DNA of 64,000 nt from an uncultured Cellvibrionaceae bacterium (GTDB lineage: Bacteria; Pseudomonadota; Gammaproteobacteria; Pseudomonadales; Cellvibrionaceae), in assembly GCA_964542655.1 (NCBI GenBank), contig CAZIWB010000010.1:137533-201532 (forward strand), in the 5' to 3' direction. Of this stretch, positions 2,759 to 50,818 are shown piece after piece; positions within the stretch are counted from its first letter, which is position 1, and every line of letters begins with the position of its first letter. Below the pieces are notes generated by a model. That model ran no database searches, was not told the origin of the DNA, and saw only the letters and a program-made list of their open reading frames with translations. Both the position numbers and the translations under genes were made by a program.

Positions 2759-3222
2759 TGTCAGATGAAATTAGGAAGAAACTGGATTTAGCACCATTCG
2801 TGCCAGACAAGCCAGAATCGTATAACATACAGACCGAAGATGATTTTGAATTTGCCAGAAAGGCTATGTACGAAATTATTGCCAAGTCACAACAAGCCCT
2901 AGAAGACATGTTCGATATCGCCAAGTCGCTACAGTCACCACATGCTTATGAGGTTTTAAATTCACTTCTGAAGAACGCTGCATCATATCCAAAGGATTTA
3001 ATCGACATCCAGAAAAAGCGTATTGACATTGCTAAACTGTCTAACAAGGATGCTGATAAGGCAGACACTACAACCACTAACAACAATCTGTTTGTTGGAT
3101 CAAACGAAGATTTAAATAAACTTCTCAATTCCATGGGTATCACCAATGATACCATTGCGCTTGAAGGCGAATTTGAAGAAGTGGAAGACGAAAAAGATAA
3201 CGATAATGAGTCTAGAGAATAA
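2758..3222 (+). CDS. g16: Terminase small subunit, T4 gp16-like
   Basis: 154 aa acidic protein overlapping the start of the large terminase (ATGTCAG overlap with the g15 stop); position matches T4 gene 16. Confidence 0.5.
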   Translation: MSDEIRKKLDLAPFVPDKPESYNIQTEDDFEFARKAMYEIIAKSQQALEDMFDIAKSLQSPHAYEVLNSLLKNAASYPKDLIDIQKKRIDIAKLSNKDADKADTTTTNNNLFVGSNEDLNKLLNSMGITNDTIALEGEFEEVEDEKDNDNESRE

Positions 3223-4852
3223 TACAGGATATAATGGAAATCCCCTTCTTAGAAAGGCGGGGATTAAAATTGAGTGGACGCACGAACAAGTATTAGAATA
3301 CGCACGTTGCAAACAAGACCCTATTTATTTTGCTGAAAAGTATATTAAGATCGTTGACGTTGATAGAGGCTTTGTCAATATCAAATTGTACGATTTCCAA
3401 AAAGATATTATCACGAAATTTAATAATAACAGAAAGACGATTGTTAATAGCTCTAGGCAGATTGGTAAGACCACAACCGCTACCGTGATCATCCTTCACT
3501 ATATCCTGTTTAATGACTCTAAACAGGTAGCTTTGCTTGCCAACAAGGGCGCGGCAGCTAGAGAAATCCTAGATCGTATCCAGAGTGCCTATGAGGCCCT
3601 TCCTTTATGGATTCAACAGGGGATTAAGGAATGGAACAAAGGTTCTGTTACCCTTGAAAATAAGAGCAAGATTATTGCTTCTGCTACAACTGGTTCTGCT
3701 TGTCGTGGTAAATCGTTTGCGCTTCTGTATATTGACGAAACCGCGTTCGTTGAAGGTTGGGATGAATTTGCTGGCGCTGTTCTTCCTACGATTACGTCTG
3801 GTAAGAAAACCAAAATTCTCTATACGTCAACACCAAATGGATTAAACCACTTCCACTCGATCATGACCAAGGCCAAAGACGGTAGAAATGGTTTTGCGTG
3901 GGCTGAAGTGCCGTGGTGGGAAGTTCCGGGTAGAGATGAAGCTTGGAAGAACGAAACCCTTGCATCGATCAACTTTGATATGGAAAAGTTCAATCAGGAA
4001 TTTTGTTGTTCGTTTATTGGTTCGTCTAACACGCTGATATCATCTGCTGCCCTAAAGGCTCTTGTTGATCAAATTCCGATTGTAGAGAAATATAATATCA
4101 AGCAATACAAGGCCCCAATTGATAAGCATCAATATGTTATTGTTGCGGACGTTTCCAGAGGAAAGGGACTTGACTATTCTGCTGCATCTGTGGTAGATAT
4201 TAGCAGAATGCCTTATGAACAGGTATGTGTGTTCAGGGATAACTACGTTACGCCCGCTGATTACGCATCTGAATTATTTAAATTATCGAAAATTTATAAT
4301 GATGCAACAATTCTCGTTGAAATTAATGACAACGGGGAACAGGTATCTTATACCCTGTATAACGAATTTGAATGTGAAACCCTGATATTCACCGAATCTA
4401 ACGGCAGATCGGGCAAACGCATTTCATCTGGTTTTGGTAAAACTGGTATTGATATGGGAATCAGGACAACCAAGACAGTAAAGAACATAGGATGCTCACT
4501 GCTCAAATTACTTGTTGAACAACAACAATTGGTAATTAATGACGACAACACTATCTATGAGTTGTCCCGATTCTCGCGCAAGGGCGCATCATATGAAGCC
4601 GAATCCGGGGCTACGGATGATATCGTAATGGGGCTTGTTCTATTCGCTTGGATGACGGATCAAAGCTACTTCAAGGAACTAACTGATATTAACACTCTTC
4701 AGAGGTTAAGAGATAGAACTGAAGAAGAAATTGAGAACAGCCTAATGCCATTTGGGATACATGATGATGGCAGTGATTATCATAATGATAATTCTGTGAT
4801 TGACTTAACGACCACACCGCATCACCCGGATTTCGGCAACATATTCTTTTAA
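3146..4852 (+). CDS. g17: Terminase large subunit (T4 gp17 family)
   Basis: Walker A SRQIGKTT, Walker B LLYIDETAF, TSTPNGLNHF and a C-terminal nuclease region GATDDIVMGLVLFAW, all alignable to T4 gp17. The true start may be the ATG at 3207, which overlaps the g16 stop. Confidence 0.9.
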   Translation: MIPLRLKANLKKWKTKKITIMSLENNTGYNGNPLLRKAGIKIEWTHEQVLEYARCKQDPIYFAEKYIKIVDVDRGFVNIKLYDFQKDIITKFNNNRKTIVNSSRQIGKTTTATVIILHYILFNDSKQVALLANKGAAAREILDRIQSAYEALPLWIQQGIKEWNKGSVTLENKSKIIASATTGSACRGKSFALLYIDETAFVEGWDEFAGAVLPTITSGKKTKILYTSTPNGLNHFHSIMTKAKDGRNGFAWAEVPWWEVPGRDEAWKNETLASINFDMEKFNQEFCCSFIGSSNTLISSAALKALVDQIPIVEKYNIKQYKAPIDKHQYVIVADVSRGKGLDYSAASVVDISRMPYEQVCVFRDNYVTPADYASELFKLSKIYNDATILVEINDNGEQVSYTLYNEFECETLIFTESNGRSGKRISSGFGKTGIDMGIRTTKTVKNIGCSLLKLLVEQQQLVINDDNTIYELSRFSRKGASYEAESGATDDIVMGLVLFAWMTDQSYFKELTDINTLQRLRDRTEEEIENSLMPFGIHDDGSDYHNDNSVIDLTTTPHHPDFGNIFF

Positions 4853-5249: not shown

Positions 5250-5651
5250 TCATTTAGGTTCATCTATAGTTCCAAAATACCTAAGCACATGATAATGGCG
5301 GTTATTTTCTCTTTCCTGATTACAAGGCGAACAAACAAATTCTGAATTATGCCTTAGGGTTGATCCATACCGCCATGGAATGATGTGGTCGCGGGTAGCG
5401 GTTGGGTACCTTCCTTTTTCGTCTGGCTTGAAAATGAAGTCACAATCGATGCACTTAAAATCTTGCCCCTTAAGGAATTGTTCTTTCCTCTTTTTATCGG
5501 TTGTACCACTAGGGCGATTAGCTCCCCTAGATGCTCTAGCGGGGTGTGATACTCCTTCTAGATACCTTTGAAGGGCAAGATAATTTAAGTGGTGATTGTC
5601 TTCAAGGTAAAAAATTTCCACCAAGAATACTTTCAATATCAGGGGTAACAA
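5250..5651 (-). CDS. HNH endonuclease
   Basis: CIDCD..., DHIIPWRYG...N..FVCSPCNQ: His-Asn-His motif with flanking Cys pairs. Confidence 0.5.
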   Translation of the reverse strand: MLPLILKVFLVEIFYLEDNHHLNYLALQRYLEGVSHPARASRGANRPSGTTDKKRKEQFLKGQDFKCIDCDFIFKPDEKGRYPTATRDHIIPWRYGSTLRHNSEFVCSPCNQERENNRHYHVLRYFGTIDEPK

Positions 5652-6237
5652 ATGAATTACCCTTTAGCAACTTACCATCTTCACGGTAAATTGGATTTCC
5701 ATCATCACCAAGCTTCGTTAGGTTTGATGCCTGTACTTCTGCGCCAATCAGATCACCCGGAATGCCAAAGGTGATATCAGCGCCCATAAGAACGTATCTA
5801 AGATCAGCGCTGGCGTCTGCAATCTCCACTACATCAATCTTATCGCGAAAGCCCTTAACGTACTCTGGTTTAACGATAGGGGATGAATCCTTGACCACAT
5901 AAGAAGAACCGCGTTCATTGTAATCAACTTCTTCACGATCAAAAAATTCAAGGCGATAATCAACACCAAAGGCGTCAAGATACTCTTTGAATTCTTCTGC
6001 GATAAGATTGATTCGCAATGCGATTTCTTCGTCTGAAACGTCTGACAGTTTCGGCAATGCCACTGTGCGGATTGATAGGTTGTATAGTTCATGGAACCCT
6101 AAAACCTGATAATAAAGGTTCGTGTCTGGTTCCAGTGTTTTAAGAAGCTGTTCCTTGTCCGTTCTGGTTTCTAAAACAGCTTCAGCGTTTACTCTTGCTT
6201 TAGTTTTCTTCTCTTGCATATATATCCGTATACTCAT
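5602..6237 (-). CDS. MazG-like nucleotide pyrophosphohydrolase (all-alpha NTP-PPase), tentative
   Basis: EEIALRINLIAEEFKEY and VVEIADASADLRYVL acidic helix motifs typical of the MazG/HisE fold. The start is uncertain (internal ATG at 6237 or 6219) because the track ORF overlaps the upstream ORF. Confidence 0.4.
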   Translation of the reverse strand: MSIRIYMQEKKTKARVNAEAVLETRTDKEQLLKTLEPDTNLYYQVLGFHELYNLSIRTVALPKLSDVSDEEIALRINLIAEEFKEYLDAFGVDYRLEFFDREEVDYNERGSSYVVKDSSPIVKPEYVKGFRDKIDVVEIADASADLRYVLMGADITFGIPGDLIGAEVQASNLTKLGDDGNPIYREDGKLLKGNSFVTPDIESILGGNFLP

Positions 6238-6475
6238 ATTTAAGCTCGATTCCCATTTCGCGGGAATCTGCGTAGCCCTCAATAAATTCAGGGCTATATT
6301 CGATATCAATAACACCCCTAGCCTGTAGTTGTGCTATGTGTTCTGCGTGTTCTTCTAGAGTGTCATAATCATAGAAACTGGCACGAAATTCTTCCATGAA
6401 TTTATCATCGAATTTTTCGTCATCCAGCGTGACAAGATATTGTTGGGTAACATCGACCCGAAATGTTTTCTTCAT
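6200..6475 (-). CDS. Hypothetical protein
   Basis: 91 aa ORF in a packed same-strand series. Confidence 0.35.
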   Translation of the reverse strand: MKKTFRVDVTQQYLVTLDDEKFDDKFMEEFRASFYDYDTLEEHAEHIAQLQARGVIDIEYSPEFIEGYADSREMGIELKYEYTDIYAREEN

Positions 6476-22078: not shown

Positions 22079-22351
22079 TTAGCGGTAGTAAGCCGCACCA
22101 TAGGCCGAAACCTGCGAAGCGCCATTAGCGATGTTGCCACGAACGCCCTTAGCAGGGGTTGCCCAACTAGCAGACTTCAGGATGTTGCCCGTTGCGTTTT
22201 CAACGAAGCAAAAAACCGAGCGATAGTTACCTGCATGGTTTTCTACGATGCGGGTATACTTGCGGCCCTTCATGACCGAGATAACAAGGTTACGGCCAGC
22301 TTGATCAACCTTGGCCTGTACTTCGTTTACAAAGTTCTGAATGTCGGTCAT
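22079..22351 (-). CDS. Hypothetical protein
   Basis: 90 aa ORF preceded by a diverged copy of the cassette. Confidence 0.45.
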   Translation of the reverse strand: MTDIQNFVNEVQAKVDQAGRNLVISVMKGRKYTRIVENHAGNYRSVFCFVENATGNILKSASWATPAKGVRGNIANGASQVSAYGAAYYR

Positions 22352-24121: not shown

Positions 24122-24179
24122 ATTTAATTCCCTTCTGTCTTGTTGATCTACGTATAAGGGATTTAAATCATCCTGTCAA
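24122..24179 (-). promoter_or_regulatory. Promoter/leader cassette copy 5 (TTGACA-17-TATACG; leader with a 1-nt deletion)
   Basis: The -35 overlaps the stop codon of the upstream protease gene. Confidence 0.6.
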
Positions 24180-24736
24180 ATATTATTTTTAAATTTATAT
24201 CCATGAATCCACCTTCCAGAATAGGATAGGGAAGCAATAGGCCTGAAATCGCTATCAGTGCTGGATTCAATGATGCTCTTGTTCATGTTATCAAGAATAT
24301 AAAACTTACCATCGATCTTAACAGCCAATACAGCGTGATACTGGTTCATCGATAGAACCTTACCAACCACGATATAAAGATCATTCCTAGAGAAGCCTAG
24401 GCGGGTTAGAATGTGGTATTTCAGGATAGCATAATCTTCACAATCACCTGTAGCAAGTCTTAGGGTTGTGCTAGGTGTTTGCCATGTATCTACAGGTCCA
24501 TCCAGCTTATATGTGACATAGGTATTAACCCAATCATTTACCAGCTTTATCTTTTCCTGTTTGGATAGGTTAGAATGTTTCTTGAAATTAGAAAATTGTT
24601 CAGGGGAATTTTTAGTGCCTTCCCATCTAGCATCGTAGTTTGTCTTTTTGATTTCTATAGGTACAGAATTGTATATAGCCGGGGTGGCATATACTGGTGT
24701 ACTGATAAGGGCTAGTGCTATTAGAAACCTTTTCAT
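24176..24736 (-). CDS. Secreted transglutaminase-like cysteine protease (BTLCP family), paralog 1
   Basis: Signal peptide MKRFLIALALISTPVYA, then the ATGDCEDYAILKY Cys motif, a later His (QYHAVLAV) and Asp (YILD); same family as 29546..30136. Confidence 0.55.
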   Translation of the reverse strand: MKRFLIALALISTPVYATPAIYNSVPIEIKKTNYDARWEGTKNSPEQFSNFKKHSNLSKQEKIKLVNDWVNTYVTYKLDGPVDTWQTPSTTLRLATGDCEDYAILKYHILTRLGFSRNDLYIVVGKVLSMNQYHAVLAVKIDGKFYILDNMNKSIIESSTDSDFRPIASLSYSGRWIHGYKFKNNI

Positions 24737-25004
24737 AATCCTATTTATAAAAAATGGGGTATGAGACATAAGCCCCATACCCCTTAGTTAATTCAATGAA
24801 ATATAAGATAAATGTTATTCAACATTAAACTTAGAGTTAGTGTTGTGTGATAGGACTTTACTACTTTCCTACCTTCAGCGAGGGTTTCCATCGCCAATCG
24901 CATCACAACATACGACGCCCTTATAGGTCTTTACTATTGTCACACACCCAATAGATAGTGTCCATATATCCTTTTAAGCCCCTATATGGAAGGCTAGTAA
25001 ACTT

Positions 25005-25083
25005 GTTGGTTGCGGGAGCGGGATTTGAACCCGCGACCTTCTGCTTATGAGACAGACGAGCTACCGGACTGCTACTACCCCGC
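25005..25083 (-). tRNA. tRNA-Met/Ile2 (CAT)
   Basis: Acceptor TGCGGGG/TCCCGCA, anticodon arm TCTGT-CTCATAA-GCAGA, T-arm GCGGGTTCAAATCCCGC. Confidence 0.7.
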
Positions 25084-25202
25084 AACAAAATGATATTAAA
25101 AGAGAATAGACAATACTTATGGTGATCTAGGAGGATCGATGAAGTATACAAGAAAATGTTGGAATTTTATGTCTATTCTCATTTAATACCACTTTCGTAG
25201 TA

Positions 25203-27617: not shown

Positions 27618-28175
27618 TTATCCTATCTTCTTAAGTCCCGGTTCAATGAAAAGCAATTCTGTATTTTTCTTTTCCACAGAATTATCCCATATGATCCATG
27701 AATATGATGTGGTTCCACCACCCTTAACAGGGCTACCGGCTGGATACATAGAAAGTCTTTCAGAAAACACATACACCTTACTAGGTGGATTTTCTGCATA
27801 GAACCTATGATATCTCTTTTGTGATTCTAGAAAGGCTGTTCTAACCAGAATTGCTACCTTATGAGTAGCAAGGGAAAGTGCATGTTCTAGAATATCTTCT
27901 GCAATATTGTAAGGTGGATTTGTGATGATATTATTGAAATTTTCTTTCACATCAAAAAAATCTTTGACTTCACCATATCCACGATCATATAGATCAGAAG
28001 AAAATACTTCACAACCAGTTTGTTTCAAAACCTCTGACATCGATCCATCACCGCAACAAGGCTCTAGGATGGTTCCTGAAAAGGTTTCATACTTAATTAG
28101 GGCTTTGGTGCCCCATGCTGGCGTTGGATAGAAATCCGCCCCCTCATTATTTACTAAACGTCTATTACTTACCAT
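27618..28175 (-). CDS. DNA N6-adenine methyltransferase
   Basis: ADFYPTP, SAM-binding motif I LEPCCGDGS and catalytic motif IV NPPY. Confidence 0.65.
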   Translation of the reverse strand: MVSNRRLVNNEGADFYPTPAWGTKALIKYETFSGTILEPCCGDGSMSEVLKQTGCEVFSSDLYDRGYGEVKDFFDVKENFNNIITNPPYNIAEDILEHALSLATHKVAILVRTAFLESQKRYHRFYAENPPSKVYVFSERLSMYPAGSPVKGGGTTSYSWIIWDNSVEKKNTELLFIEPGLKKIG

Positions 28176-29315: not shown

Positions 29316-29564
29316 TTATTCACTCTCACAATCTAAACAAATCCATTCATCTGTTTCTATAGACATTTCGGAAATTTCGTACCACCAACCACAACAAGTA
29401 CACTGGAACGCAAGCGAATCTATTTCTGAACAGAAACTAATATCATTTTCTGCGTGTCCCATATCATGGTCTTCAAGCACTTCATAAAGTGACTTACAGG
29501 AACCCATCAATTCATATGCAATAAATTCAGCGGTTTGATTATATGTCATTTCTTCCAAATCCAA
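29316..29564 (-). CDS. Hypothetical Cys-rich protein
   Basis: 82 aa with FQCTCCGWWYE and ICLDCESE. Confidence 0.4.
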   Translation of the reverse strand: MDLEEMTYNQTAEFIAYELMGSCKSLYEVLEDHDMGHAENDISFCSEIDSLAFQCTCCGWWYEISEMSIETDEWICLDCESE

Positions 29565-30136
29565 GCAGAGGTTGTGTTTAAAGCAACCATGGGAGTGAAG
29601 TTGTAAATAGTAGGATGTGTTACTTCTAATGAGTCATCCTTATTTTCTAGCTTCACAAACTCACTACCAGTATCGGCTATTAGTACTGCATGGCCACCAT
29701 CAATATTCTTGCCAATAGTGACGTAGAGAGATTCAGCGGGAAATCCAGAGGAAACTAACATTTGGTACTTTACTACCACATATTCCTCACAGTCTCCATT
29801 ACCACGCACAAGCGCAGTATCCGCCGTATCCCACTTATCACCTTTAATGTCGGTACGAAACCTAATGTTTTTATTAACCCATGCGTTGATAAGTAGAAGC
29901 TTATCACGGCTATCCATCGATTTTGCCGATGATATTACATCATCCCATTTACCGCGTTCGGTAATCGGCTTTGATATAACCTCATACCATTTTTTACCCC
30001 AATAAAGAGACGGGTCTTTGAATGTTTCTATAGCTTTCTTACCATATATGTTAGGTGTTCTGGATTCCTGTGCAAAGGCATTACCTGCCAGCACCATCGA
30101 AATTGCCCCAATTGCTACTGTAATTTTTTTAAACAT
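29546..30136 (-). CDS. Secreted transglutaminase-like cysteine protease (BTLCP family), paralog 2
   Basis: Signal peptide MFKKITVAIGAISMVLAGNAFA; GNGDCEEYVVVKY; GGHAVLIADTG; paralog of 24176..24736. Confidence 0.55.
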   Translation of the reverse strand: MFKKITVAIGAISMVLAGNAFAQESRTPNIYGKKAIETFKDPSLYWGKKWYEVISKPITERGKWDDVISSAKSMDSRDKLLLINAWVNKNIRFRTDIKGDKWDTADTALVRGNGDCEEYVVVKYQMLVSSGFPAESLYVTIGKNIDGGHAVLIADTGSEFVKLENKDDSLEVTHPTIYNFTPMVALNTTSAWIWKK

Positions 30137-30463
30137 TGCGCGTCTCCTTTCTTGATATATAGATATCATCATTAAAAAGAGAAGTCAACATTTATTTTAT
30201 GAAAAAGTTGCGGGATGTGTTTCTATTTTCCAAAATGAGCGAATAAGGAACACCCTTAGCAACTATATCAAAATTCCCAATCTTTTCGATAACCATATGA
30301 AGTCTTCTTTGACTTACCAGTATCGTCAAGTTTCAAATCCTTAGTTTTATATGAAAATGTGTCATCAGAAACGCGCTGGCCATCAATATAGTAACGATGG
30401 CGATAAAGATTTCCCCATAGGGAACTTGTCATTGTCAGTTTCATAGTATACTCCTAAAAAGGA

Positions 30464-30646: not shown

Positions 30647-31171
30647 TTACTTATTTAGTCTTGTCATCCCGCGCCAAAATCCATCTGGCGCTGGTTCATC
30701 TTTAGGTATTTTCTTGTTAACTATACCGTTAGTATAACATACTAAGTTTGATATAGCAACACTAATGTTTTTCTTATGGTCTTCTTTTTTGGGCTTACCA
30801 ATGTTTCCTTTACCACCCTTGGCGGCAACATTAGAAGCCCTAGAATTCATCTTTCTAGCACCTTCTAAACCATACTTGTTAACCATTTTATCCCATATGG
30901 ATATCTGGCTACCAACACTTGCAGCATCGGCATAATTTTCTTTAGGCGTCCCCCAATATAAATGTTTTGTGTTTGAACACAACTCATTATGACATGCATG
31001 ACAAACATGTATTTTCTTGCCGGATGGTATTGTTGTTTTTAAATGATGTGCCAAAAGACCTTTTAGGTACATGGATTGGCCACCTATATTAATACAATCT
31101 TCAGATAAATCCAAATGAGACTGTCTGTTTTCTTTATCTAATTTTATATAATCTTCTATATCTATGAACAT
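30647..31171 (-). CDS. HNH endonuclease
   Basis: IHVCHACHNELCSNTKHLYWGTPKEN is a classic HNH motif. Confidence 0.55.
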   Translation of the reverse strand: MFIDIEDYIKLDKENRQSHLDLSEDCINIGGQSMYLKGLLAHHLKTTIPSGKKIHVCHACHNELCSNTKHLYWGTPKENYADAASVGSQISIWDKMVNKYGLEGARKMNSRASNVAAKGGKGNIGKPKKEDHKKNISVAISNLVCYTNGIVNKKIPKDEPAPDGFWRGMTRLNK

Positions 31172-34143: not shown

Positions 34144-34995
34144 ATGAAAAAATTCAGAGATTTTCTAGAGAACCCAAACCCTCCGGTTATTATCTATGCG
34201 TTGCCTACGCATGGGGCGCATTCTGTTGCGCCTACATCTAACCCATTAGATGAAGCTAAGTTTAGCAGCAAAGAAGAATACCATAGAGAAAACGATAATT
34301 CTCACATTGGCAGCCATGATGAAGTTGACAACCATGTTAGCGAAGGTGCTGATAAACATATCGGCAAACTTAAATATGAACAAAAAACTGCCGTCAATGC
34401 ATATTCTACATCATCTTATCATCTTAACCACCATCTCATATCTAAACACACAGGAAAGGAAGATACTGCTAATAAATACTTCGGCAAGGAACACCATGAG
34501 AGATTAGAGGGAATCGACCATCATCTATCTAATGCCATAAAGTCATCCAAACTTAAAAAGGACATGCACTTATATCATGGCACCACGGGTTTCAATCCGG
34601 GTAAAGAGGCCGCTAAACACCCTGAAGGCCATATCAAGCTACCTGCATATACATCCACTACACATGACAAAGTTATAGCTACAGATTTCAGCAATCCAAC
34701 AAAAGTGAAAAGTATGGATAGAGAATCACACATCATAAAAATACATGCGAAGAAAGGCACACACGCATTACACGTTGCCCATCATTCTCGCTTTGAACAT
34801 GAGAAAGAAACCATTATACATAAAAATGCTGTTCTGAAAATTCACAAGAAACCAGATGTCATTGAACATACAATGAAAGAAAGGGATTCTTTGGACAATC
34901 TAACTGGCAAAACCTTTAAAAGAAGAACCTATGTTTGGCACGCACATGTTGTAGATGACGGTACCACTGACAACAAGAAAGAGAAAAAGAAATGA
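34144..34995 (+). CDS. His-rich protein with a T4-type capsid-targeting N-terminus and an ADP-ribosyltransferase-like motif triad (H-G-T / S-T-T / E-x-E)
   Basis: N-terminus MKKFRDFLE (compare T4 MKTYQEFIAE). LYHGTTGF, then AYTSTTHDK about 27 aa later, then EHEKETII about 40 aa after that, which is R/H-S-E ART spacing. A late-promoter-like TATAAATA sits at 34131-34138. Confidence 0.5.
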   Translation: MKKFRDFLENPNPPVIIYALPTHGAHSVAPTSNPLDEAKFSSKEEYHRENDNSHIGSHDEVDNHVSEGADKHIGKLKYEQKTAVNAYSTSSYHLNHHLISKHTGKEDTANKYFGKEHHERLEGIDHHLSNAIKSSKLKKDMHLYHGTTGFNPGKEAAKHPEGHIKLPAYTSTTHDKVIATDFSNPTKVKSMDRESHIIKIHAKKGTHALHVAHHSRFEHEKETIIHKNAVLKIHKKPDVIEHTMKERDSLDNLTGKTFKRRTYVWHAHVVDDGTTDNKKEKKK

Positions 34996-35900
34996 TCAAA
35001 AAATTCAGAGATTTTATTAAACCAGTTCCACCGATTGTCATCACCGCTGTTCCTGTGCATGGTTCACACGCACAAGAGATTGTTAAGCCACCTGTCAAGC
35101 CTACGGTGATCACTGCCGATCCTACACATGGTAAGCATTCAGAACCTAAAGATGTCAATGAAGAAAAATTTGTTAAAGACAAATATATGCTTCATCACGA
35201 AAATGGGCATATTGGTGATGAAGAAACTACACACAAACACGTAGAAGACGAGGCAGATAAGCATATTAATGCGCTTACACAAAAACAGAAAGATGCCGTT
35301 AAATCTTATACTGGACATTCTAGAGATTTAAATCATAATCTTATTGAGAAAGCAAAGGGTAACCATCACTATCTTGATGACGAAACCAATTTCACAAAGC
35401 ACGGCGCAGCTAGAATTAGAGAGACAGAAAAACATCTTGCTAAAGCCATGAAGAAATCCAGAATCAAAAAGGATATTGTTCTATATCACGGCACCAAGGG
35501 GTACAATCCGGGTAAGGAAGCAGCAAAACACCCAGAAGGGCATATCAGACTTCCTTCTTATACGTCTACATCACATCATAAGAAAAATGCATTTAATTTT
35601 GCCGATCCAAGGGCTAGCAAGAAACAATCAAGAGAAACACACATATTAAGGATTCATGCTAAAGCTGGTACACATGCCATCCACGTTTCGCAACACTCGG
35701 AATTTCCCGAAGAAAGAGAAACAATATTACACAAAAATACTGTTTTAAAAATTCACAAGAAACCAGATGTCATTGAACACGAACACGAAGTATATAAACC
35801 CGGACAATGGGATAAGGAAAAGATCAAGAGAAGAACCTACGTTTGGCACGCACATGTGGTAAGCCAGCACCACGATGATGACGATAAATCTGACAAGTAA
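34992..35900 (+). CDS. Paralog of 34144..34995: His-rich, capsid-targeting-like N-terminus, ART-like motifs
   Basis: MIKKFRDFIK; LYHGTKGY, SYTSTSHHK, PEERETIL; many blocks shared with the upstream paralog (HIxxIHAKxGTHAxHV, KIHKKPDVIEH, KRRTYVWHAHVV). Confidence 0.5.
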   Translation: MIKKFRDFIKPVPPIVITAVPVHGSHAQEIVKPPVKPTVITADPTHGKHSEPKDVNEEKFVKDKYMLHHENGHIGDEETTHKHVEDEADKHINALTQKQKDAVKSYTGHSRDLNHNLIEKAKGNHHYLDDETNFTKHGAARIRETEKHLAKAMKKSRIKKDIVLYHGTKGYNPGKEAAKHPEGHIRLPSYTSTSHHKKNAFNFADPRASKKQSRETHILRIHAKAGTHAIHVSQHSEFPEERETILHKNTVLKIHKKPDVIEHEHEVYKPGQWDKEKIKRRTYVWHAHVVSQHHDDDDKSDK

Positions 35901-37618: not shown

Positions 37619-38962
37619 TCACTTTTTCTTAGTAAGTGAATTTACGATGGCTTGGCCTTGTTCCGTTTGGGTAAAGGCTTCTACCATACCGGCTAGCTGC
37701 GTCCCGCCACTAGGGCTAAAGATCGAACCAATACCGCTTACACCTTCTGCAACAGTTCCGCCGTTGGCAATAACCTTAACATCTGCTTCCGCAATAGCCT
37801 TGGCCATTTCCTTACCAACTTCACCATTCGTCTTGATTTCTTCAAGCTTGACGAGATAGGTCTGGTAACCTTCATTCTCACCAATTTCCTTAGCAAGTGT
37901 AATCTGTGCATTAACAGGAGCGAGAAGGATAAGCTTTTCTGATTCAGCGTTAGCCTTACCGATTGCCTCAATACCTTCAGCATCCTTCTTAACCGCTTCA
38001 AGCTTACCTTCTGCTACCGTGATGGTAGTTTTCTTGTCAGTATCAGCGGCAATCACATTAACTGCCTGTTCCTGCTTAGCCTTAACTTCAGCAACTTCCT
38101 TAGCGATTTCTGCCTGCTTGGTTTCCTGAACACGACGAACCGCCATGTCCTTTTCTGTGGTAATGGCATTCTGGATAAGAACTTCCTGATCAGAACGTTC
38201 CTTGGCAATACCAACTTCCTTGTCCTTTTCAGCGTTGCGAATGCCTACCTGCTGTTCTGCCTGTGTGCGGCTAAGTGCAACATCTCGGCTTGCCTCAATT
38301 TCCTTCATTTCAGCAACACGGTTGTTTTCCGCAACCTTTTCGCGGCTTTCCTTATCAATACGTGACTGTTCCTTAGCCATGATATTGCGGATAACACGGG
38401 AATCATTACTATCGTTAAGGTTCATGAATTCAATCGTCTTGGCAGTCTTAACACCCCATTCCGAAAGCTGTTCATCAACTTCGTTGGTAAATTCTTCACC
38501 AAGCTTAGCACGATCCTGCATAATGTTTTCAAGTTCGTTGGTGCCAAGGATACGACGAACCGCGCCTTGAAGAACGTTTGAAAGCTGTTCCTGAAGTTCT
38601 GTGAAATTGCTTACCCGTTCCGCTGCCTGATTGGGATCATGGATACGGAAGAATGCCGCGATATCTACCACAAAAGGAAGACGGCCCTTATCGTATGCCT
38701 CATAGTTTTTCAGATTGATATCAAAGATGCTAAGCGGATATGAAACATGTTCGATGCCAAACTTAGGAACCCAAGACGGGATTGCGTAATAAACGTTGCC
38801 ATTAGTCGCACCAGAACCATAAGAAACTTTCTTATTAGCATACTGGACGATGTGTACCTGATTGGTAGGAACAACCCTACGCCAGACAAAGGCCAGTAGA
38901 AGAGGGAGAATAGCAAAACAAAATACGGCCAGTGCCGCAAATCCAATAATCATCATATTCAT
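37619..38962 (-). CDS. SPFH/band-7 (flotillin-like) membrane protein
   Basis: N-terminal TM segment, SPFH-like core (PLSIFDINLKNYEAYDKGRLPFVVDIAAFFRI...) and a long Ala/Glu/Lys-rich coiled coil. Confidence 0.6.
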   Translation of the reverse strand: MNMMIIGFAALAVFCFAILPLLLAFVWRRVVPTNQVHIVQYANKKVSYGSGATNGNVYYAIPSWVPKFGIEHVSYPLSIFDINLKNYEAYDKGRLPFVVDIAAFFRIHDPNQAAERVSNFTELQEQLSNVLQGAVRRILGTNELENIMQDRAKLGEEFTNEVDEQLSEWGVKTAKTIEFMNLNDSNDSRVIRNIMAKEQSRIDKESREKVAENNRVAEMKEIEASRDVALSRTQAEQQVGIRNAEKDKEVGIAKERSDQEVLIQNAITTEKDMAVRRVQETKQAEIAKEVAEVKAKQEQAVNVIAADTDKKTTITVAEGKLEAVKKDAEGIEAIGKANAESEKLILLAPVNAQITLAKEIGENEGYQTYLVKLEEIKTNGEVGKEMAKAIAEADVKVIANGGTVAEGVSGIGSIFSPSGGTQLAGMVEAFTQTEQGQAIVNSLTKKK

Positions 38963-39473: not shown

Positions 39474-40430
39474 TTAGGAAGCCATTTCCAAGGCCACTTC
39501 AAGGGCATTCTGGTTAGTGCGGCTACCAGCACCGTACCAGTTAGAGGCAAGGCGGGTATCCGCGCTACGGCCCACAACATGGTTAGTCATGAACGTTACA
39601 GTGTTGTAAAGCTGCCAGAACGTTCCTTCGCCCATTTCTGCCCCCGGCTGGATATCCATCAGGCTCTTAGCGATTTCTGCATTCCGCGATGCTTCCTTTT
39701 CACGAACGTTAGAGGTAAGGGGGAAGATGCGGTTGAAATATTCAACAATATCTTCATCCTTGTAACGCCTTTGCGTAAGAAATTCAGCTTGATCCTTATA
39801 GGTGGCCAGCTTGAACTTTGCAATGCCAAGGGCTTCCTTCACCATATCAGGATCAAAATCGCGGCGATGGTTCACCTTCACGAAGTTCTTAGACTTCTGA
39901 TTAAGTGCCATCGTGATAGTGTTGTTGCAGACAACCCGGATAGGAGTCATACGAACGTCAATGGACTGTCCATAACGATGCGGGTTGGTGAAGTTAAGGA
40001 ACATATCAACCTTATCCTTACCACCGCAAACTTCAAACGATTCGTTAACCCGTGCCAGTGCCCAAACAATCTGGCCACCACGAAGCGAACCGGCAACTTC
40101 CATGTTCATATCGCCGCTGGCAACAAAATCATTGAAGAAATCAAATGCGTCTGCATTCTGGTAGGGCTTCCAATCGCTGGAAATGATGTCAAGCACCTTG
40201 TTATCAGTGGAGCGGATGAGGGCCGAACGATCAACTTCCACCAGCTTTCCGCCGATTTCAGCGAAGCAAGGGGTTGCGTTGACTTCCCAATCAAGACCCG
40301 CTGCCTTGAGAATTTGTGCGGGTGCAAGATCGTGAGGTACTTCAGTACCAAGACCATGCCAAGGCTTTTCACCAGCCCATGCGATAGAGGCCTTACCTTC
40401 AACCATTTCGATCATGTGACATTCGTTCAT
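39474..40430 (-). CDS. DUF932/TIGR03299-like phage-plasmid protein (tentative)
   Basis: 318 aa; N-terminal block EKPWHGLGTEV, recalled as the family hallmark. Confidence 0.4.
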   Translation of the reverse strand: MNECHMIEMVEGKASIAWAGEKPWHGLGTEVPHDLAPAQILKAAGLDWEVNATPCFAEIGGKLVEVDRSALIRSTDNKVLDIISSDWKPYQNADAFDFFNDFVASGDMNMEVAGSLRGGQIVWALARVNESFEVCGGKDKVDMFLNFTNPHRYGQSIDVRMTPIRVVCNNTITMALNQKSKNFVKVNHRRDFDPDMVKEALGIAKFKLATYKDQAEFLTQRRYKDEDIVEYFNRIFPLTSNVREKEASRNAEIAKSLMDIQPGAEMGEGTFWQLYNTVTFMTNHVVGRSADTRLASNWYGAGSRTNQNALEVALEMAS

Positions 40431-41183: not shown

Positions 41184-43481
41184 ATGGCAATCCAAGTAAG
41201 TCCCGGTATTGTGGCGAATGAGGTTGATCTAACAACCACAATCCCTGCAATGTCCACAACAGAAGGTGCTATTGCTGGTGTATTTAATTGGGGACCAATT
41301 GGAAAATATACCCTAGTAGATTCTGAAATCAGCCTAGCAAAAGCTTATGGTACCCCAAATGATGGGAACTATGAGACATTTTTCGCTGGCGCAAACTTCC
41401 TAGGGTACGGTAATGCGTTATACGTGTCAAGAGCGGCAGTGACTACAGGCAAATCCGTTACATTTTCTACAACTCTATCAGGAAACACTACTTTAACCAC
41501 AAGCAACACGGCAACTACGGTTGTTCCGGGTATGGCTGTTTATGGTAATGGTATTGAGCCTAACACCACAGTAACCAATGTTACTGCAAATAGCTCTGTA
41601 AGCACAATTATTCTTTCAAATGCTGCTTCTGCTACTGGTACAGAAAATATCAACTTCTTTGAGGCTGATTATTCCTTCAACGCTATTGCTAACAGCACAA
41701 ACGTTGTGGATAGAGCAAAAAACATCATCCGCAATGCAGACGAAATTGAAGATTTCGATGGTTCGCCGGGTGTTGAATTTGTTGCTAAGTATCCGGGTGA
41801 ATTTGGTAACTCACTAAGAGTTTCTGTGTGTGGTTCTGATCAACAGTTTGCTTCTTTTGTAAATCCATATGCACTGGTTGTCAACTCTTCAGTTCAAACA
41901 AACACATCAGTAATCCCTAGCAAAGCTGGTATCTCAATTGAAGTTAATGCTACTACAGCTAACGTTTTTATTGCTAACTCTGCTACGCTTCCTTTCTCTG
42001 ACACATATATCGTGGCAGGCGAAATTAAATCTAGCATCTCTACGGGTGACTATATCGTAGTTGGTAACAACACCATTGGCCGTCAATCTCTGAAGGTTAA
42101 GAGTGTGTCTGCGCTTGCTAACACCAACCCGCTATCTCCTACAGGTGAAATATATTTCAATATTGAATTTGATCAGCCTTACAAGCTTTCTACTGCATTC
42201 TCTTCTAATCTAATCAATAGAACATGGGAATTCAATAACGTTCTAGCAACGGCACCGGGCACTTCAGATGAAGTTATTAATGCAGGCAGCAATGTGTGTG
42301 ACCAGATCAGTGTTGTTGTGGTTGACGAAAAGGGCGCATTTAGCGGTACACCGGGCACAATTCTAGAAGCATATTCTAATCTATCCAGAGTACCAAACGC
42401 TAAGACACCAGATGGTGAATCTAACTACTTCAAGAGCGTGATTAATAACAGATCACCTTACATTTGGGCAGTTAATGACCTACCTGATATGCCTAGCGCA
42501 AATGCTTCCACAGTTGCAAATGTAACTACAGATGCACCATACTCTAAATCTTTCGTTGGTGGTACTACCGGTTCTACTGAATCGTCAATTTCCATGGGCG
42601 AACTAGCTGCTGCATACGATCTATTTAAAGATGATACTTCAGTTGACGTTTCCCTAATTATTACTGGTAAGGCTATCGGTTTCGATGGTGCACAGTCGGT
42701 AAATTACCTTGTGGATAACGTTTCCGAAATCAGAAAAGATTGTGTTGTATTCGCATCACCGCCAAGAAATGCAGTTGTTAATAACAAGGGCAACGAGGCA
42801 CAGGACATTAAAATTTGGAGAGGAAACCTACGTGCTTCTTCTTATCTGTTCCTAGATTCTGGTTATAAATACCAGTATGACAAGTACAATGATGTTTATC
42901 GTTGGGTACCTCTAAATGGCGATATCGCTGGTCTAACAGCTAGAACAGACGATACAAACGATCCATGGTTTTCACCGGCTGGTTTTAATAGAGGCCAGAT
43001 CAAGAATATCATTAAGCTATCTTGGAATCCAAATCAGGCAGATAGAGACATTCTGTATAAGGATGACATCAATCCAGTTGTTACGTTCCCCGGTTCTGGC
43101 ACTGTTCTATACGGTGATAAAACCGCACTTGGTAAAGCAAGCGCATTTAGCAGAATTGGTGTTAGAAGACTATTCATCATTCTTAGAAAGACAATTTCTA
43201 GGGCTGGTAGAAATATGTTGTTCGAATTCAACGATGATTTCACCAGATCACAGTTCAAGAATCTCGTAGAGCCTTATCTAAGAGATGTAATGGGCAGAAG
43301 GGGTATCACCGATTTCCTAGTTGTGTGCGACGAAACAAACAACACACAGGAAGTTATCGATAGCAACAGATTTATTGGTGACATTTATGTTCGTCCAAAT
43401 AGATCAATCAACTTCATTACATTGAACTTCGTAAGCGTAAGAAGCGGTCAAGAGTTCACCGAAGTAGTAGGCCAATTCTAA
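41184..43481 (+). CDS. g18: Tail sheath protein (T4 gp18 family)
   Basis: 765 aa; N-terminal AIQVSPGIVANEVDLT and C-terminal conserved sheath blocks; followed by g19 and g20 in the T4 order. Confidence 0.8.
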   Translation: MAIQVSPGIVANEVDLTTTIPAMSTTEGAIAGVFNWGPIGKYTLVDSEISLAKAYGTPNDGNYETFFAGANFLGYGNALYVSRAAVTTGKSVTFSTTLSGNTTLTTSNTATTVVPGMAVYGNGIEPNTTVTNVTANSSVSTIILSNAASATGTENINFFEADYSFNAIANSTNVVDRAKNIIRNADEIEDFDGSPGVEFVAKYPGEFGNSLRVSVCGSDQQFASFVNPYALVVNSSVQTNTSVIPSKAGISIEVNATTANVFIANSATLPFSDTYIVAGEIKSSISTGDYIVVGNNTIGRQSLKVKSVSALANTNPLSPTGEIYFNIEFDQPYKLSTAFSSNLINRTWEFNNVLATAPGTSDEVINAGSNVCDQISVVVVDEKGAFSGTPGTILEAYSNLSRVPNAKTPDGESNYFKSVINNRSPYIWAVNDLPDMPSANASTVANVTTDAPYSKSFVGGTTGSTESSISMGELAAAYDLFKDDTSVDVSLIITGKAIGFDGAQSVNYLVDNVSEIRKDCVVFASPPRNAVVNNKGNEAQDIKIWRGNLRASSYLFLDSGYKYQYDKYNDVYRWVPLNGDIAGLTARTDDTNDPWFSPAGFNRGQIKNIIKLSWNPNQADRDILYKDDINPVVTFPGSGTVLYGDKTALGKASAFSRIGVRRLFIILRKTISRAGRNMLFEFNDDFTRSQFKNLVEPYLRDVMGRRGITDFLVVCDETNNTQEVIDSNRFIGDIYVRPNRSINFITLNFVSVRSGQEFTEVVGQF

Positions 43482-44058: not shown

Positions 44059-45675
44059 TTGGCACAACTTTTTGGTTTTGAATTTGGTAAGAGTAAGGAA
44101 GAAGAGAAGGCTAAAATTGCGTCGTTTGTCCCTAAAGAGGATGATGACGGCGCAGTTTTAGTACAAGGTTCTGGTGTATATGGCACCTACGTAGACTTTG
44201 ATGGTTCAATTAGGTCTGAAGCAGAACTAGTATCTAAGTACAGGGAAGTTTCTAATCACCCTGAAGTTGATATGGCGATTGATGACATCGTTAACGAGAT
44301 GATCACACAGGAACCAGAAGATTCCCCTGTAGAAATTATTCTTGATAAAGTAGAACAGTCAGACAAGGTTAAAAAGCTTATCATTGAAGAATTTGACAAC
44401 GTTCAAAGACTTTTGGAGTTCCACACACTTTCTTATGAAATCGTAAGAAGGTGGTATGTGGATGGTAGGCTTTATTACCATGCGGTGACGGACGAAGCTA
44501 ACCCTAAGCGTGGAATTATAGAACTTCGTTATATCGATCCTAGAAAAATTAGAAAAATCAAGGAAATTAAGAAAGAAAAGCTTGCTGGCGCAATTGATAT
44601 TAATGTGCCCGTGTCTGAATATTTCATTTACAACGAAAGAGGATTTGCAAAAACATCTGGTACTGCTGCAACCCCAACAAACAATAATGTTGGTGGTATT
44701 AAAATTGCGAAAGATTCCATCGTACATTGTACGTCTGGTCTGGTTTCGGATAACGGTGATCTTGTAAAGGGCTATCTACACAAAGCCATGAAGCCGCTTA
44801 ATCAGTTGCGTTCCATGGAAGATTCTCTTGTGATTTACAGAATTTCTAGAGCGCCGGAAAGACGTATTTTCTACATTGACGTTGGTAACCTACCGAAATC
44901 AAAAGCAGAACAATATGTGCGCGACCTACAGATAAGATTTAAAAACAAGCTGGTCTACGATTCAGCCAGTGGTGAAATCCGCGATGATCGTAAATTTATG
45001 ACCATGCTTGAAGATTTCTGGCTTCCCCGTTCTGGTGGTGGTCGTGGTACTGAAATCACTACTCTACCGGGTGGACAAAACCTATCAGAATTAGATGACG
45101 TGGTTTATTTCCAAAGGAAGCTATATAAATCTCTTAACGTTCCTATCACTCGCCTAGAGCCTGAAACAACATATTCCCTAGGTAGAGCAACAGAAATCAC
45201 AAGAGACGAAGTTAAATTTGCCAAGTTCATCAACAGACTAAGAAATAAATTTTCAGCACTGTTCCTTTCTATCCTAGAAAAGCAATTGGTGTTGAAAAAT
45301 ATTATGTCTCTTGAAGATTGGGAAGAAATTAAACACAACGTTCGTTTCCAATATGCCGAAGACAACTATTACGCAGAACTTAAGGAAACAGAAATCCTTA
45401 GAGATAGAGTTTCTATGCTTCGTGATATGGATGATTATATCGGCAAATACTGGTCGCACGAAAATGTTAGAAGAAACATTCTTAAGCAGAGTGACGAAGA
45501 CATAGAGGAAAACGATAAGCAGATTGCGGAAGAAAAGGATGATCCACAGTTCAACCCGCCACTTGATCCTAATATGGATGGTGGTCCGGGTGGTATGGAT
45601 CAAAATGATGACGGTCAAGCAGATTTTAACCCAAATCCACAACCGCTAGATAGCAATCCTCCACAACCTAAATAA
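44059..45675 (+). CDS. g20: Portal vertex protein (gp20 family)
   Basis: 538 aa; position between the tube gene and the prohead core/protease genes; acidic, Pro-rich C-terminus. Confidence 0.8.
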   Translation: MAQLFGFEFGKSKEEEKAKIASFVPKEDDDGAVLVQGSGVYGTYVDFDGSIRSEAELVSKYREVSNHPEVDMAIDDIVNEMITQEPEDSPVEIILDKVEQSDKVKKLIIEEFDNVQRLLEFHTLSYEIVRRWYVDGRLYYHAVTDEANPKRGIIELRYIDPRKIRKIKEIKKEKLAGAIDINVPVSEYFIYNERGFAKTSGTAATPTNNNVGGIKIAKDSIVHCTSGLVSDNGDLVKGYLHKAMKPLNQLRSMEDSLVIYRISRAPERRIFYIDVGNLPKSKAEQYVRDLQIRFKNKLVYDSASGEIRDDRKFMTMLEDFWLPRSGGGRGTEITTLPGGQNLSELDDVVYFQRKLYKSLNVPITRLEPETTYSLGRATEITRDEVKFAKFINRLRNKFSALFLSILEKQLVLKNIMSLEDWEEIKHNVRFQYAEDNYYAELKETEILRDRVSMLRDMDDYIGKYWSHENVRRNILKQSDEDIEENDKQIAEEKDDPQFNPPLDPNMDGGPGGMDQNDDGQADFNPNPQPLDSNPPQPK

Positions 45676-48123: not shown

Positions 48124-49368
48124 ATGGCAGTTGATTTTAATAAAATGTCAGATGAAGAAATTCTAGAATACGTAGAAAATCTTTCTGATGAAGAATTCGA
48201 AAATCTTGACGAAGGCGCGAAGGCGTTCCTAGACAAGTACCTAGAAGAAGCATTTGACGAAGACGAAGGCGAAGAAGAAATTTCTGAAGACGCTGAAGAA
48301 GTCACTGAAAGTGAAGAACTAGAAGAAGGCGAAGAACTAGAAGAAGGTACTGAAGCTGCCAATACTCTTAAGCCAAAGGGTGGTTCATCCGCTGGCGATT
48401 CCAGAGCGGAACAGCTTGCAACTTTCACTTCTCTTATGTCTCAACTAGGCAAGGAAGACCTTTCCAAGTTCCTTAATCAAGCACTGGAACAGATCGGCAA
48501 GGAAGCTGACAAGACACCGGGTACACCTGAAGGCAATAGAGCTACTATTACAGCTAAGCCATCTGCGGCTAAGGGTTCTGGTAAGGCAACACCATCCGAA
48601 CCAATGAAGAAGCTAACCAAAGAAGATATCGATGAAATCTTTGCTGGTGACGAAGTTATTTCTGAAGAAACCAAAGAAAAGGCTACCGTAATTTTTGAAG
48701 CTGCACTTCATACAAGATCAATTCTTGAAGAAGCTAAGCTACAGGAAGCTTTTGACGCTAAGATTGCAGAACTAGAAGAAAGCTACGACGAAAAGCTTGA
48801 AACAGAAATCGAATCTATCACTGAAACGCTAATTGAGAAGATCGATAGCTACATGGATTACACTGTCCAAAACTGGCTAGATGAAAACGAAGTACAGATT
48901 ACCAACTCACTTAGAGCGGAAATTGCTGAAGACTTCATTGCTGGCCTTAGAAACCTATTCGTAGAAAGCTACGTAGAAGTTCCTGAAACTAAGCTTGATA
49001 TTGTTGAAGAACTACAGGCACAGGTTGCTAGCCTTTCTGAAGAGCTATCCGCCGCTGTTGATCAGAACATTGAACTATCAAACATTGTTGCAGAATCATC
49101 CAGAGAAAACATCATTAATTCTATCTCCGAAGGCCTAACGGTATCCGAAACTGAAAAGCTTCGTACCCTAGCTGAAAGCGTTGAATTTTCTGATTCCGAT
49201 ACATTCACCAAGAAAGTAGGCATGATCAAAGAAAATTATTTCTCTGAAAAGAAAACACCTACAACCGGTCTGATTGTTGAAGAAATCGATGGTACAGATG
49301 CAGAAGTTAAGAACACAAATCCAACAATGGACAAGTATATTAACGCAATCTCTAAAAACATAAAATAA
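48124..49368 (+). CDS. g22: Prohead scaffold protein (gp22-like)
   Basis: 414 aa, very acidic and coiled-coil, with an EEGEELEEG repeat; lies between g21 and g23. Confidence 0.65.
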   Translation: MAVDFNKMSDEEILEYVENLSDEEFENLDEGAKAFLDKYLEEAFDEDEGEEEISEDAEEVTESEELEEGEELEEGTEAANTLKPKGGSSAGDSRAEQLATFTSLMSQLGKEDLSKFLNQALEQIGKEADKTPGTPEGNRATITAKPSAAKGSGKATPSEPMKKLTKEDIDEIFAGDEVISEETKEKATVIFEAALHTRSILEEAKLQEAFDAKIAELEESYDEKLETEIESITETLIEKIDSYMDYTVQNWLDENEVQITNSLRAEIAEDFIAGLRNLFVESYVEVPETKLDIVEELQAQVASLSEELSAAVDQNIELSNIVAESSRENIINSISEGLTVSETEKLRTLAESVEFSDSDTFTKKVGMIKENYFSEKKTPTTGLIVEEIDGTDAEVKNTNPTMDKYINAISKNIK

Positions 49369-50794: not shown

Positions 50795-50818
50795 AAAGGG
50801 GGCTTCGGCCCCCTTTTT
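50795..50818. terminator. Strong bidirectional rho-independent terminator
   Basis: AAAGGGGGC-TTCG-GCCCCCTTTTT between g23 (+) and the homing-endonuclease-like gene (-). Confidence 0.75.

Follow-up and report, generated by a model that had tools for sequence, protein, structure and literature searches.

The 64-kb stretch of DNA analysed here (the window; positions 137,533 to 201,532 of the ~201.5-kb contig CAZIWB010000010.1) is part of the genome of an uncultured T4-like myophage. It carries two minus-strand genes, A and B, for small proteins of the BTLCP family (transglutaminase-like cysteine proteinases of bacteria), i.e. Peptidase C93, the family of LapG and HvyA, and both proteins have a LapG-type fold. 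The original prediction, made by reading the sequence, had placed two diverged, secreted paralogs of this family in a phage accessory region, and both open reading frames (ORFs) were found with the ends and start codons that it gave. A and B are very probably exported BTLCP enzymes acting on the host envelope.

24176..24736, minus strand: BTLCP paralog A, 186 amino acids; PF06035 match, LapG match, AlphaFold2 model
29546..30136, minus strand: BTLCP paralog B, 196 amino acids, with its ATG at 30136; PF06035 match, LapG match, AlphaFold2 model

Family, catalytic centre and fold of A and B

Both proteins matched PF06035 (Peptidase_C93/BTLCP; gathering cut-off 27 bits), A with 65.1 bits (E 8.5e-18) and B with 63.4 bits (E 2.7e-17), and the precomputed Pfam annotation of identical database proteins agrees. 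The generic Transglut_core family of Pfam matched both proteins more weakly, and the transglutaminase-core match set beforehand as a check on the prediction was thus found for each. A and B are indeed diverged paralogs, being 33% identical over 123 residues (E 2e-23), and a hidden Markov model built from the family found exactly these two copies in the window.

Conserved columns were taken from alignments of 16, 60 and ~450 family sequences, the last of these containing duplicates. The invariant or nearly invariant columns are a Trp, the G-D-C-E motif, a His, two Asp upstream and an acidic third residue of the catalytic triad. The key residues are W85, G97-D98-C99-E100-D101, H134 and D149 in A and W102, G114-D115-C116-E117-E118, H149 and E164 in B. 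Both proteins align with LapG at the motif G-D-C-E-[D/E]-Y and at the His downstream of it, and A has C99, H134 and D149 in the triad columns of LapG, which are kept in 439-447 of the ~450 sequences. The expectation of this motif with a downstream His and Asp therefore held in full for A, a Cys-His-Asp enzyme by its residues, but only for Cys and His in B, where the third triad residue is Glu164 (LEN for LDN). B also has Glu118 where the family has Asp after G-D-C-E. Among the ~450 aligned sequences, duplicates included, these two changes are confined to B and its three orthologs, P0016-P0018.

These two substitutions, specific to the B clade, raise the alternative that A alone is an active enzyme and that B, its catalysis weakened or lost, serves as a binder or decoy. 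This is improbable as B keeps the Cys, the His, the flanking Asp/Glu and the Trp, and as the Glu is fixed across a B clade of 52-79% identity that is under strong purifying selection (see below). HvyA of Caulobacter crescentus tolerates Asp-to-Asn at the third triad position, D241N being functional (PMC4241560), and some other members of the BTLCP family have Asn there. By this analogy an acidic or amide residue at this position, such as Glu164, may be workable.

LapG binds calcium beside its active site (PMC4359373), and in DvhG of Desulfovibrio vulgaris the double change D316A/E318A, flanking the Cys, abolishes the calcium-dependent activity (PMC13090378). The calcium-site residues are conserved in A (D98/E100, D79, D83) and in B (D115/E117, D96, D100), so that the Asp and Glu flanking the Cys are, by comparison with these enzymes, predicted calcium ligands. 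This bears on the idea that A and B are transamidases which cross-link or deamidate envelope proteins, for example sealing the envelope so that superinfection or premature lysis is prevented. A and B have a transglutaminase fold, the chemistry of most BTLCPs is unassayed and the authors of the HvyA study name transamidation and deamidation as possibilities (PMC4241560). However, the BTLCPs assayed so far, LapG and DvhG, are all calcium-dependent endoproteases (PMC4359373, PMC13090378), and the conserved calcium-site residues of A and B also speak against a transamidase. Such chemistry has little likelihood here, and we infer that A and B would act as proteases.

The conserved Trp was considered as the LapD-binding Trp and this was rejected, since that residue, W125/W126, belongs to LapD/CdgS9 (PMC4359373). 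W85 of A and W102 of B are instead a conserved core residue of the family, and the family Trp is essential in HvyA (W178S) (PMC4241560).

AlphaFold2 models of A and B, made from the 60-sequence alignments, had a predicted local distance difference test score of 92.4 and 89.2 respectively. A Foldseek search of the PDB gave LapG as the best match for both, for A 4fgq at E 7e-11 with a template modelling (TM) score of 0.60 and for B at E 1.2e-9 with a TM score of 0.61. The top six matches were all LapG, from Legionella and Pseudomonas (E 7e-11 to 2.9e-8, TM 0.58-0.62). The models superpose on 4u65_E at 2.0 Å, A over 122 alignment columns and B over 133. By sequence, too, the best PDB match was LapG (A, E 4.5e-15; B, E 3.4e-10), the only solved relative found (4u65_E, 4fgo). 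Other transglutaminase-fold cysteine peptidases were far behind LapG in the Foldseek search.

LapG (P. fluorescens; L. pneumophila; PDB 4U65, 4FGO/4FGP/4FGQ), a member of the same Pfam family, shares with A and B the Sec signal peptide, the G-D-C-E-[D/E] motif, the calcium ligands, the His, the acidic third residue and a length of ~190 amino acids. It differs from them in sequence, identity being 22-35%, in the N-terminal segment, which in A and B is of an alphaproteobacterial type, and in the third triad residue of B. LapG also has a LapD partner and is linked to a type I secretion system (T1SS) and an adhesin; no such partner, secretion system or adhesin was found among the ORFs of the window that were scanned.

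The signal peptides of A, B and their orthologs were examined with rules rather than a trained predictor. The original prediction had given both proteins cleavable signal peptides and asked for a check, and the Sec-type layout of n, h and c regions was found in each, a pair of positive charges preceding a hydrophobic run of 9-14 residues and a -3/-1 site. The N-terminus of A reads MKR-FLIALALIS-TPVYA/TP, with a predicted signal peptide of residues 1-17, and that of B reads MFKK-ITVAIGAISMVLAG-NAFA/QE, with one of residues 1-22, the slash marking the cleavage site in each. By the same rules, neither protein has a lipobox or a later transmembrane segment, and their orthologs share the Sec-type features. 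From these features we infer that A and B would be exported via Sec to the periplasm. One B ortholog, P0018 (L164:1797-2387, in the assembly L164), has a lipobox-like L-L-G-C in its signal peptide and is thus possibly a lipoprotein instead of being soluble in the periplasm.

The phage and the surroundings of the two genes

PHROG profiles found a helicase, an SbcC-like nuclease subunit and the structural and packaging genes listed below, and Pfam added a T4 neck protein and the gp15 tail sheath stabiliser. The terminase, sheath, portal and capsid genes are of T4 type and the window holds 20 tRNA genes, in agreement with the prediction of a phage accessory region. Both A and B lie in this tRNA-rich region and have the same orientation as the tRNAs.

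3146-4852: large terminase (PHROG profile)
41184-43481: tail sheath (PHROG profile)
44059-45675: portal (PHROG profile)
48124-49368: scaffold (PHROG profile)
49412-50773: major head protein (PHROG profile)
7699-33721, minus strand: 20 tRNA genes

No GenBank phage has a capsid protein more than 67% identical to that of the window, the best matches being Stenotrophomonas DLP6, Synechococcus S-SKS1, Pelagibacter Mosig and Sinorhizobium phiM12. A megablast search with the region matched tRNAs alone, hence there is no close sequenced phage. Given these two results, the phage is an uncultured and distant member of the T4 group.

Proteins identical to A and B are present in the NCBI contig and in Logan assemblies of two sequencing runs, and the whole arrangement of the window is reproduced in these independent assemblies (L001 and L002). 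A related phage, L003, whose shared proteins are 61-64% identical and which has eight tRNAs, carries an ortholog of A that is 45% identical and follows tRNA-Met directly as in the window. Orthologs of B were found in L164 (52% identical), L165 (57%) and L175 (79%). In L164 and L165 the gene sits amid tRNAs in the window's own order, Leu(TAG), Phe, Leu(TAA) and Met. As independent assemblies show the same arrangement and orthologs, A and B are genuine phage genes. That they are an artefact, either bacterial DNA mis-assembled into the phage contig or chance ORFs, is scarcely credible: no point in its favour was found, and it is opposed by the assembly of the same arrangement from two runs, by the orthologs among the same phage tRNAs in four other assemblies, by the E-values of ~1e-17 and by the GC content. 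The latter is 0.38 and 0.40 for genes A and B and 0.40 for the phage. Because gene and phage agree, and do not approach the 62-67% of the nearest bacterial homologs, the two genes have resided for long in this low-GC phage lineage.

Comparison of B with its 79% identical ortholog in L175 gave a proportion of nonsynonymous differences (pN) of 0.128 and of synonymous differences (pS) of 0.786, figures given as pN and pS rather than dN/dS since synonymous sites are saturated. Saturated pS (0.79) with a pN of 0.13 indicates strong purifying selection on B.

L003 also has a second BTLCP (L003:2381-2965, minus strand), which is 25% identical to B and 32% identical to A and is not an ortholog of B. 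It lies on the strand opposite to the L003 ortholog of A, and its N-terminus is more like a membrane anchor than a cleavable signal.

The start and the surroundings of each gene were examined closely, and the following features bear on expression.

25007..25084, minus strand: tRNA-Met (CAT), directly upstream of A (ARAGORN)
24756..24783, minus strand: G+C-rich hairpin of 12 bp with 7 G-C pairs, then ATTTTTTAT (terminator scan)
30144..30149, minus strand: Shine-Dalgarno sequence AAGGAG, 7 nt upstream of the ATG of B (read from sequence)
30160..30188, minus strand: candidate early-type promoter of B, TTGACT-17 nt-TATCTA, with an imperfect -10 hexamer
29316..29549, minus strand: small ORF of 77 amino acids with CxxC...CxxC (zinc-ribbon-like), its start overlapping the stop of B

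The mechanical ORF of A extends to 24778 and the database gene call has 197 amino acids. Both of these longer starts fall inside the hairpin and T-run at 24756-24783, and the A ortholog of the related phage begins at the equivalent Met, with TAGGAG before it; the start of A at 24736 is correct for these two reasons. The hairpin lies after tRNA-Met and ends 20 nt before the ATG of A. Its RNA fold has a free energy of -26.1 kcal/mol (z -3.77), and it looks like a terminator or an element of RNA processing or stabilisation. If it does terminate, no room is left for A to have its own promoter, so the hairpin may be a terminator that leaks or may serve in RNA processing or stabilisation instead.

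The candidate promoter of B is weak and was not among the matches of the consensus promoter scan. The 77-residue ORF downstream of B, which lacks both a signal peptide and a Pfam match, is a called gene in L001. In L164 the B ortholog is likewise followed by a homolog of it (52% identical), and B and the small ORF may therefore be translated together.

The tRNA set includes Met (CAT) twice and Asn (GTT) twice, and isoacceptor pairs for Lys, Leu and Ser. Other genes of the region and its surroundings are recorded here as observations in their own right. Just beyond the tRNA region and on the strand opposite to it are two tandem overlapping genes, at 34144-34995 and 34992-35900 (plus strand), both matching PF03496 (ADP-ribosyltransferase exoenzyme) and recalling Alt/ModA/ModB of T4. 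At 37619-38962 (minus strand) is a 447-residue SPFH/Band_7 protein, a membrane-scaffold type unusual for a phage, which is 61% identical in L003. Between tRNA genes, at 30647-31171 (minus strand), is a 174-residue ORF with an HNH-like Cys/His cluster (HVCHACHNELC). It lacks a Pfam match and shows 64% conservation in L003; a homing endonuclease sitting in the tRNA cluster is its probable identity. The 185-residue ORF at 27618-28175 (minus strand) has an NPPY motif (ITNPPYN), typical of N6-adenine/N4-cytosine DNA methyltransferases, and no Pfam match at E <= 1e-3. Directly after the major head gene and on the opposite strand is a 464-residue HNH/homing endonuclease (50817-52211, minus strand; PHROG 3339/559). 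A MazG/PRA-PH-like pyrophosphohydrolase, a DUF932 protein and a DUF7717 protein are encoded at 5602-6315, 39474-40430 and 22079-22351, all on the minus strand.

Relatives of A and B in viruses and bacteria

The statement of the original prediction that the family is bacterial and periplasmic was too strong in its first part as phage copies are on record in IMG/VR, in BFVD, in Rhizobium phage RHph_I4 and in river viruses. A scan of IMG/VR with G-D-C-E-[DE]-Y-[AV] gave at least 143 contigs with a confirmed BTLCP, a lower bound since the motif is narrow, and none of these proteins was more than 44% identical to A. BFVD holds phage proteins labelled COG3672 (uncultured Caudovirales) or transglutaminase, including one of Caulobacter phage CcrPW, and EVC24_001 of RHph_I4 is annotated as a transglutaminase-like cysteine peptidase. 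In single-virus genomes from a river, reported in 2024, BTLCP was the most frequent auxiliary metabolic gene (AMG), and horizontal exchange between viral clusters was argued (PMC11283719). Other searches gave little: PHROGs had no match for A or B, and no GenBank phage matched A or a typical bacterial BTLCP at E <= 1e-3. With B there were two weak matches only among GenBank phages, to RHph_I4 and Methanosarcina virus MetMV, and a scan of JGI metagenomes found distant relatives only (36-37% identity).

Phage-borne BTLCPs are thus already on record and A and B add members. The viral BTLCP AMGs resemble A and B in being orphan genes. They differ from those of the window in sequence and in that a second copy within 10 kb of the match was found in none of 80 IMG/VR loci. 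What is new is the exported paralog pair in a T4-like lineage, the Cys-His-Glu clade of B and the linkage of the nearest bacterial relatives to type I secretion. No paper testing the function of a phage BTLCP was found in the literature.

An exhaustive search with A, clustered at 50% identity, gave 5,778 clusters at E <= 1e-3, 1,680 at E <= 1e-10 and 5 at E <= 1e-30. In species-representative genomes its closest bacterial relatives, 33-42% identical over residues 19-181, are from Sphingomonadales and other Alphaproteobacteria, and the named matches in a large protein database are likewise alphaproteobacterial; loci of Desulfovibrionaceae were also found. The bacterial relatives have the same N-terminal segment, P-x-I-[FY]-G...K-W, and a linker of ~100 residues after the signal peptide. 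To judge from this comparison, A and B are the minimal domain.

In Sphingomicrobium nitratireducens the BTLCP gene (L084:7668-8627) is followed by genes for HlyD, a SleB-like cell-wall hydrolase, an ABC transporter, a TolC-like OEP and a protein with repeats-in-toxin (RTX) repeats, all assigned by Pfam. Proteins of this locus were then used as probes for type I secretion components within 8 kb of the BTLCP gene in 80 bacterial and 80 IMG/VR loci. At least one component was found in 54 of the 80 bacterial loci, HlyD with the ABC transporter in 40 and all three components in 36; none of the 80 viral loci had any. These alphaproteobacterial BTLCPs, for which no experimental characterisation was found, have the N-terminal motif and the triad spacing in common with A and are unlike it in their linker, their T1SS/RTX neighbours and their GC content.

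Within the T1SS cluster beside the BTLCP gene of Sphingomonadales, a SleB-type hydrolase gene (PF07486) lies between those for HlyD and the ABC transporter. The arrangement is conserved, and to our knowledge it has not been described.

L084:8628-16477: T1SS cluster with the SleB-type gene between the HlyD and ABC genes; syntenic in L088, L089, L092, L094, L095, L098, L099 and L104

In a neighbour-joining tree built on 148 columns from 69 BTLCP domains, 200 bootstraps supported the B clade at 100% and every other grouping at less than 10%, including A with its ortholog and A with B. The tree decides neither for duplication within the phage nor for two acquisitions.

A possible role in the release of host adhesins

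LapA-type adhesins are cut by the calcium-dependent periplasmic protease LapG at a di-alanine site, located behind their N-terminal retention module, and the cut frees the adhesin from the outer-membrane pore of its T1SS; at high cyclic di-GMP (c-di-GMP), LapD restrains LapG (PMC4359373, PMC13090378). LapG, of Gammaproteobacteria, and DvhG recognise the same [T/A/P]AAG site and cleave each other's substrates (PMC13090378). DvhG, from another bacterial class, is a BTLCP linked to a T1SS and giant adhesins; it works by the mechanism of LapG and cuts LapA-derived peptides, and its cleavage at this site depends on D-C-E (PMC13090378). It is membrane-anchored, has an N-terminal extension of ~180 amino acids and is under the control of an HD-GYP receptor, DvhD, whereas A and B are minimal domains, predicted to be soluble, with no partner. 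A search of the flanks of four Sphingomonadales loci gave no LapD-like receptor, and no LapD-like, type I secretion or adhesin gene was found among the ORFs scanned in the window, which covers 64 kb of the contig.

These comparisons allow a tentative reading in which A and B are orphan, LapD-independent LapG-like proteases that release type-I-secreted adhesins in the host periplasm. The phage would make A and B in the infected cell and Sec would export both to the periplasm. There, as small calcium-dependent cysteine proteases, they would cut the periplasmic N-terminal anchor of giant RTX adhesins, and the adhesins held in the outer-membrane pore of the T1SS would be shed from the cell. As the phage copies have no c-di-GMP receptor of the LapD type, control of the release by the host would be bypassed. 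Release free of host control is suggested by the LapG-like fold, active centre and signal, the T1SS/RTX-linked relatives and the absence of a receptor gene in the 64 kb. The benefit to the phage could plausibly be that the infected cell leaves the biofilm, that a surface structure which traps progeny is removed or that the receptor of a superinfecting phage is removed. The two diverged paralogs could serve two substrates or two types of host. In its fullest form the proposal is that a T4-like phage lineage uses receptor-free LapG-like proteases to force adhesin shedding and override c-di-GMP control of attachment, with B a new Cys-His-Glu variant having a substrate of its own. This whole is doubtful as it stands.

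The original prediction had suggested remodelling of the cell wall or of surface proteins, or superinfection exclusion. Given the link of the nearest relatives in bacteria to type I secretion systems, the analogy favours cleavage of a surface protein, that is an adhesin, over cell-wall remodelling. A and B might instead act on some other periplasmic or outer-membrane protein, such as a receptor, porin, lipoprotein or peptidoglycan-linked protein, aid lysis or mature an exported protein encoded by the phage. Transglutaminase-fold cysteine peptidases do include cell-wall enzymes, Foldseek gave weak matches to the pseudomurein endoisopeptidase PeiP (E 1.6e-2 to 3.5e-2), the Methanosarcina virus protein matched B weakly and no BTLCP substrates are known outside the LapG, DvhG and HvyA systems. 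However, the PF06035 and LapG matches are better by orders of magnitude than those to any cell-wall enzyme, and no lysis gene is adjacent, the neighbours being tRNAs and small ORFs. Such a target is distinctly unlikely.

The main rival to adhesin release comes from HvyA (CCNA_00166), a periplasmic BTLCP which controls capsulation and, through the capsule, phage susceptibility, and which needs its Cys/His/Asp triad and Trp (PMC4241560). On this model A and B would block the export or assembly of capsule or exopolysaccharide, and the layer stripped or not renewed would be either a phage receptor, its loss giving exclusion and preventing re-adsorption of progeny to debris, or a barrier. The closest relatives of the phage proteins are, like HvyA, alphaproteobacterial. 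The Trp-Cys, Cys-His and His-Asp spacings are nearly identical at 14/35/15 in A, 14/33/15 in B (to its Glu) and 14/34/15 in HvyA, with which the comparison was by spacing only. On the other hand, HvyA is a cell-cycle-regulated protein of 272 amino acids whose gene is inside a capsule export locus, whereas the closest bacterial relatives of A are beside type I secretion and RTX genes; the molecular target of HvyA has, moreover, not been identified. A role of this kind is unlikely, though it would be the next candidate should adhesin release fail.

Several results weigh against adhesin release by LapG-like proteases. A and B are not LapG orthologs because the NCBIfam equivalog model of LapG, NF045674, gave A 75.7 bits and B 51.1 bits, far below its cut-off of 320. 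HvyA, the sole alphaproteobacterial BTLCP to have been characterised, blocks capsulation, and no adhesin is known to be its substrate (PMC4241560). The nearest bacterial homologs are probably not from the host lineage since their genomes have 62-67% GC as against the 40% of the phage, and the neighbour-joining tree gives the phage proteins no resolved place among the bacterial clades. In the RTX proteins beside the bacterial homologs a single [T/A/P]AAG site was seen, a PAAG at residue 46 in locus L135, most of the RTX genes running off the ends of the loci. Nothing so far indicates that the host has a LapA-like adhesin or a T1SS to match. In the phage itself, the Asp-to-Glu change of B could alter or weaken catalysis, and the terminator-like hairpin 20 nt upstream of A leaves its transcription route in doubt. 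Adhesins nevertheless remain the substrate that the T1SS linkage suggests for A and B, and this linkage sharpens the functional hypothesis.

BTLCP has repeatedly been flagged as an auxiliary gene in uncultured viruses and its benefit to a phage has never been demonstrated. The window offers a clean case in that a lytic-type T4-like genome has two exported paralogs with conserved orthologs and bacterial relatives linked to T1SS and RTX genes. A vague surface remodelling is thereby turned into a specific question, whether a phage protease releases host adhesins independently of c-di-GMP. If so, phage infection would be tied to biofilm dispersal, and small unregulated adhesin-releasing enzymes would be available as tools. 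Such release would also be a novel means by which a lytic phage manipulates the adhesion of its host, and it could explain why BTLCP is a common AMG of freshwater viruses.

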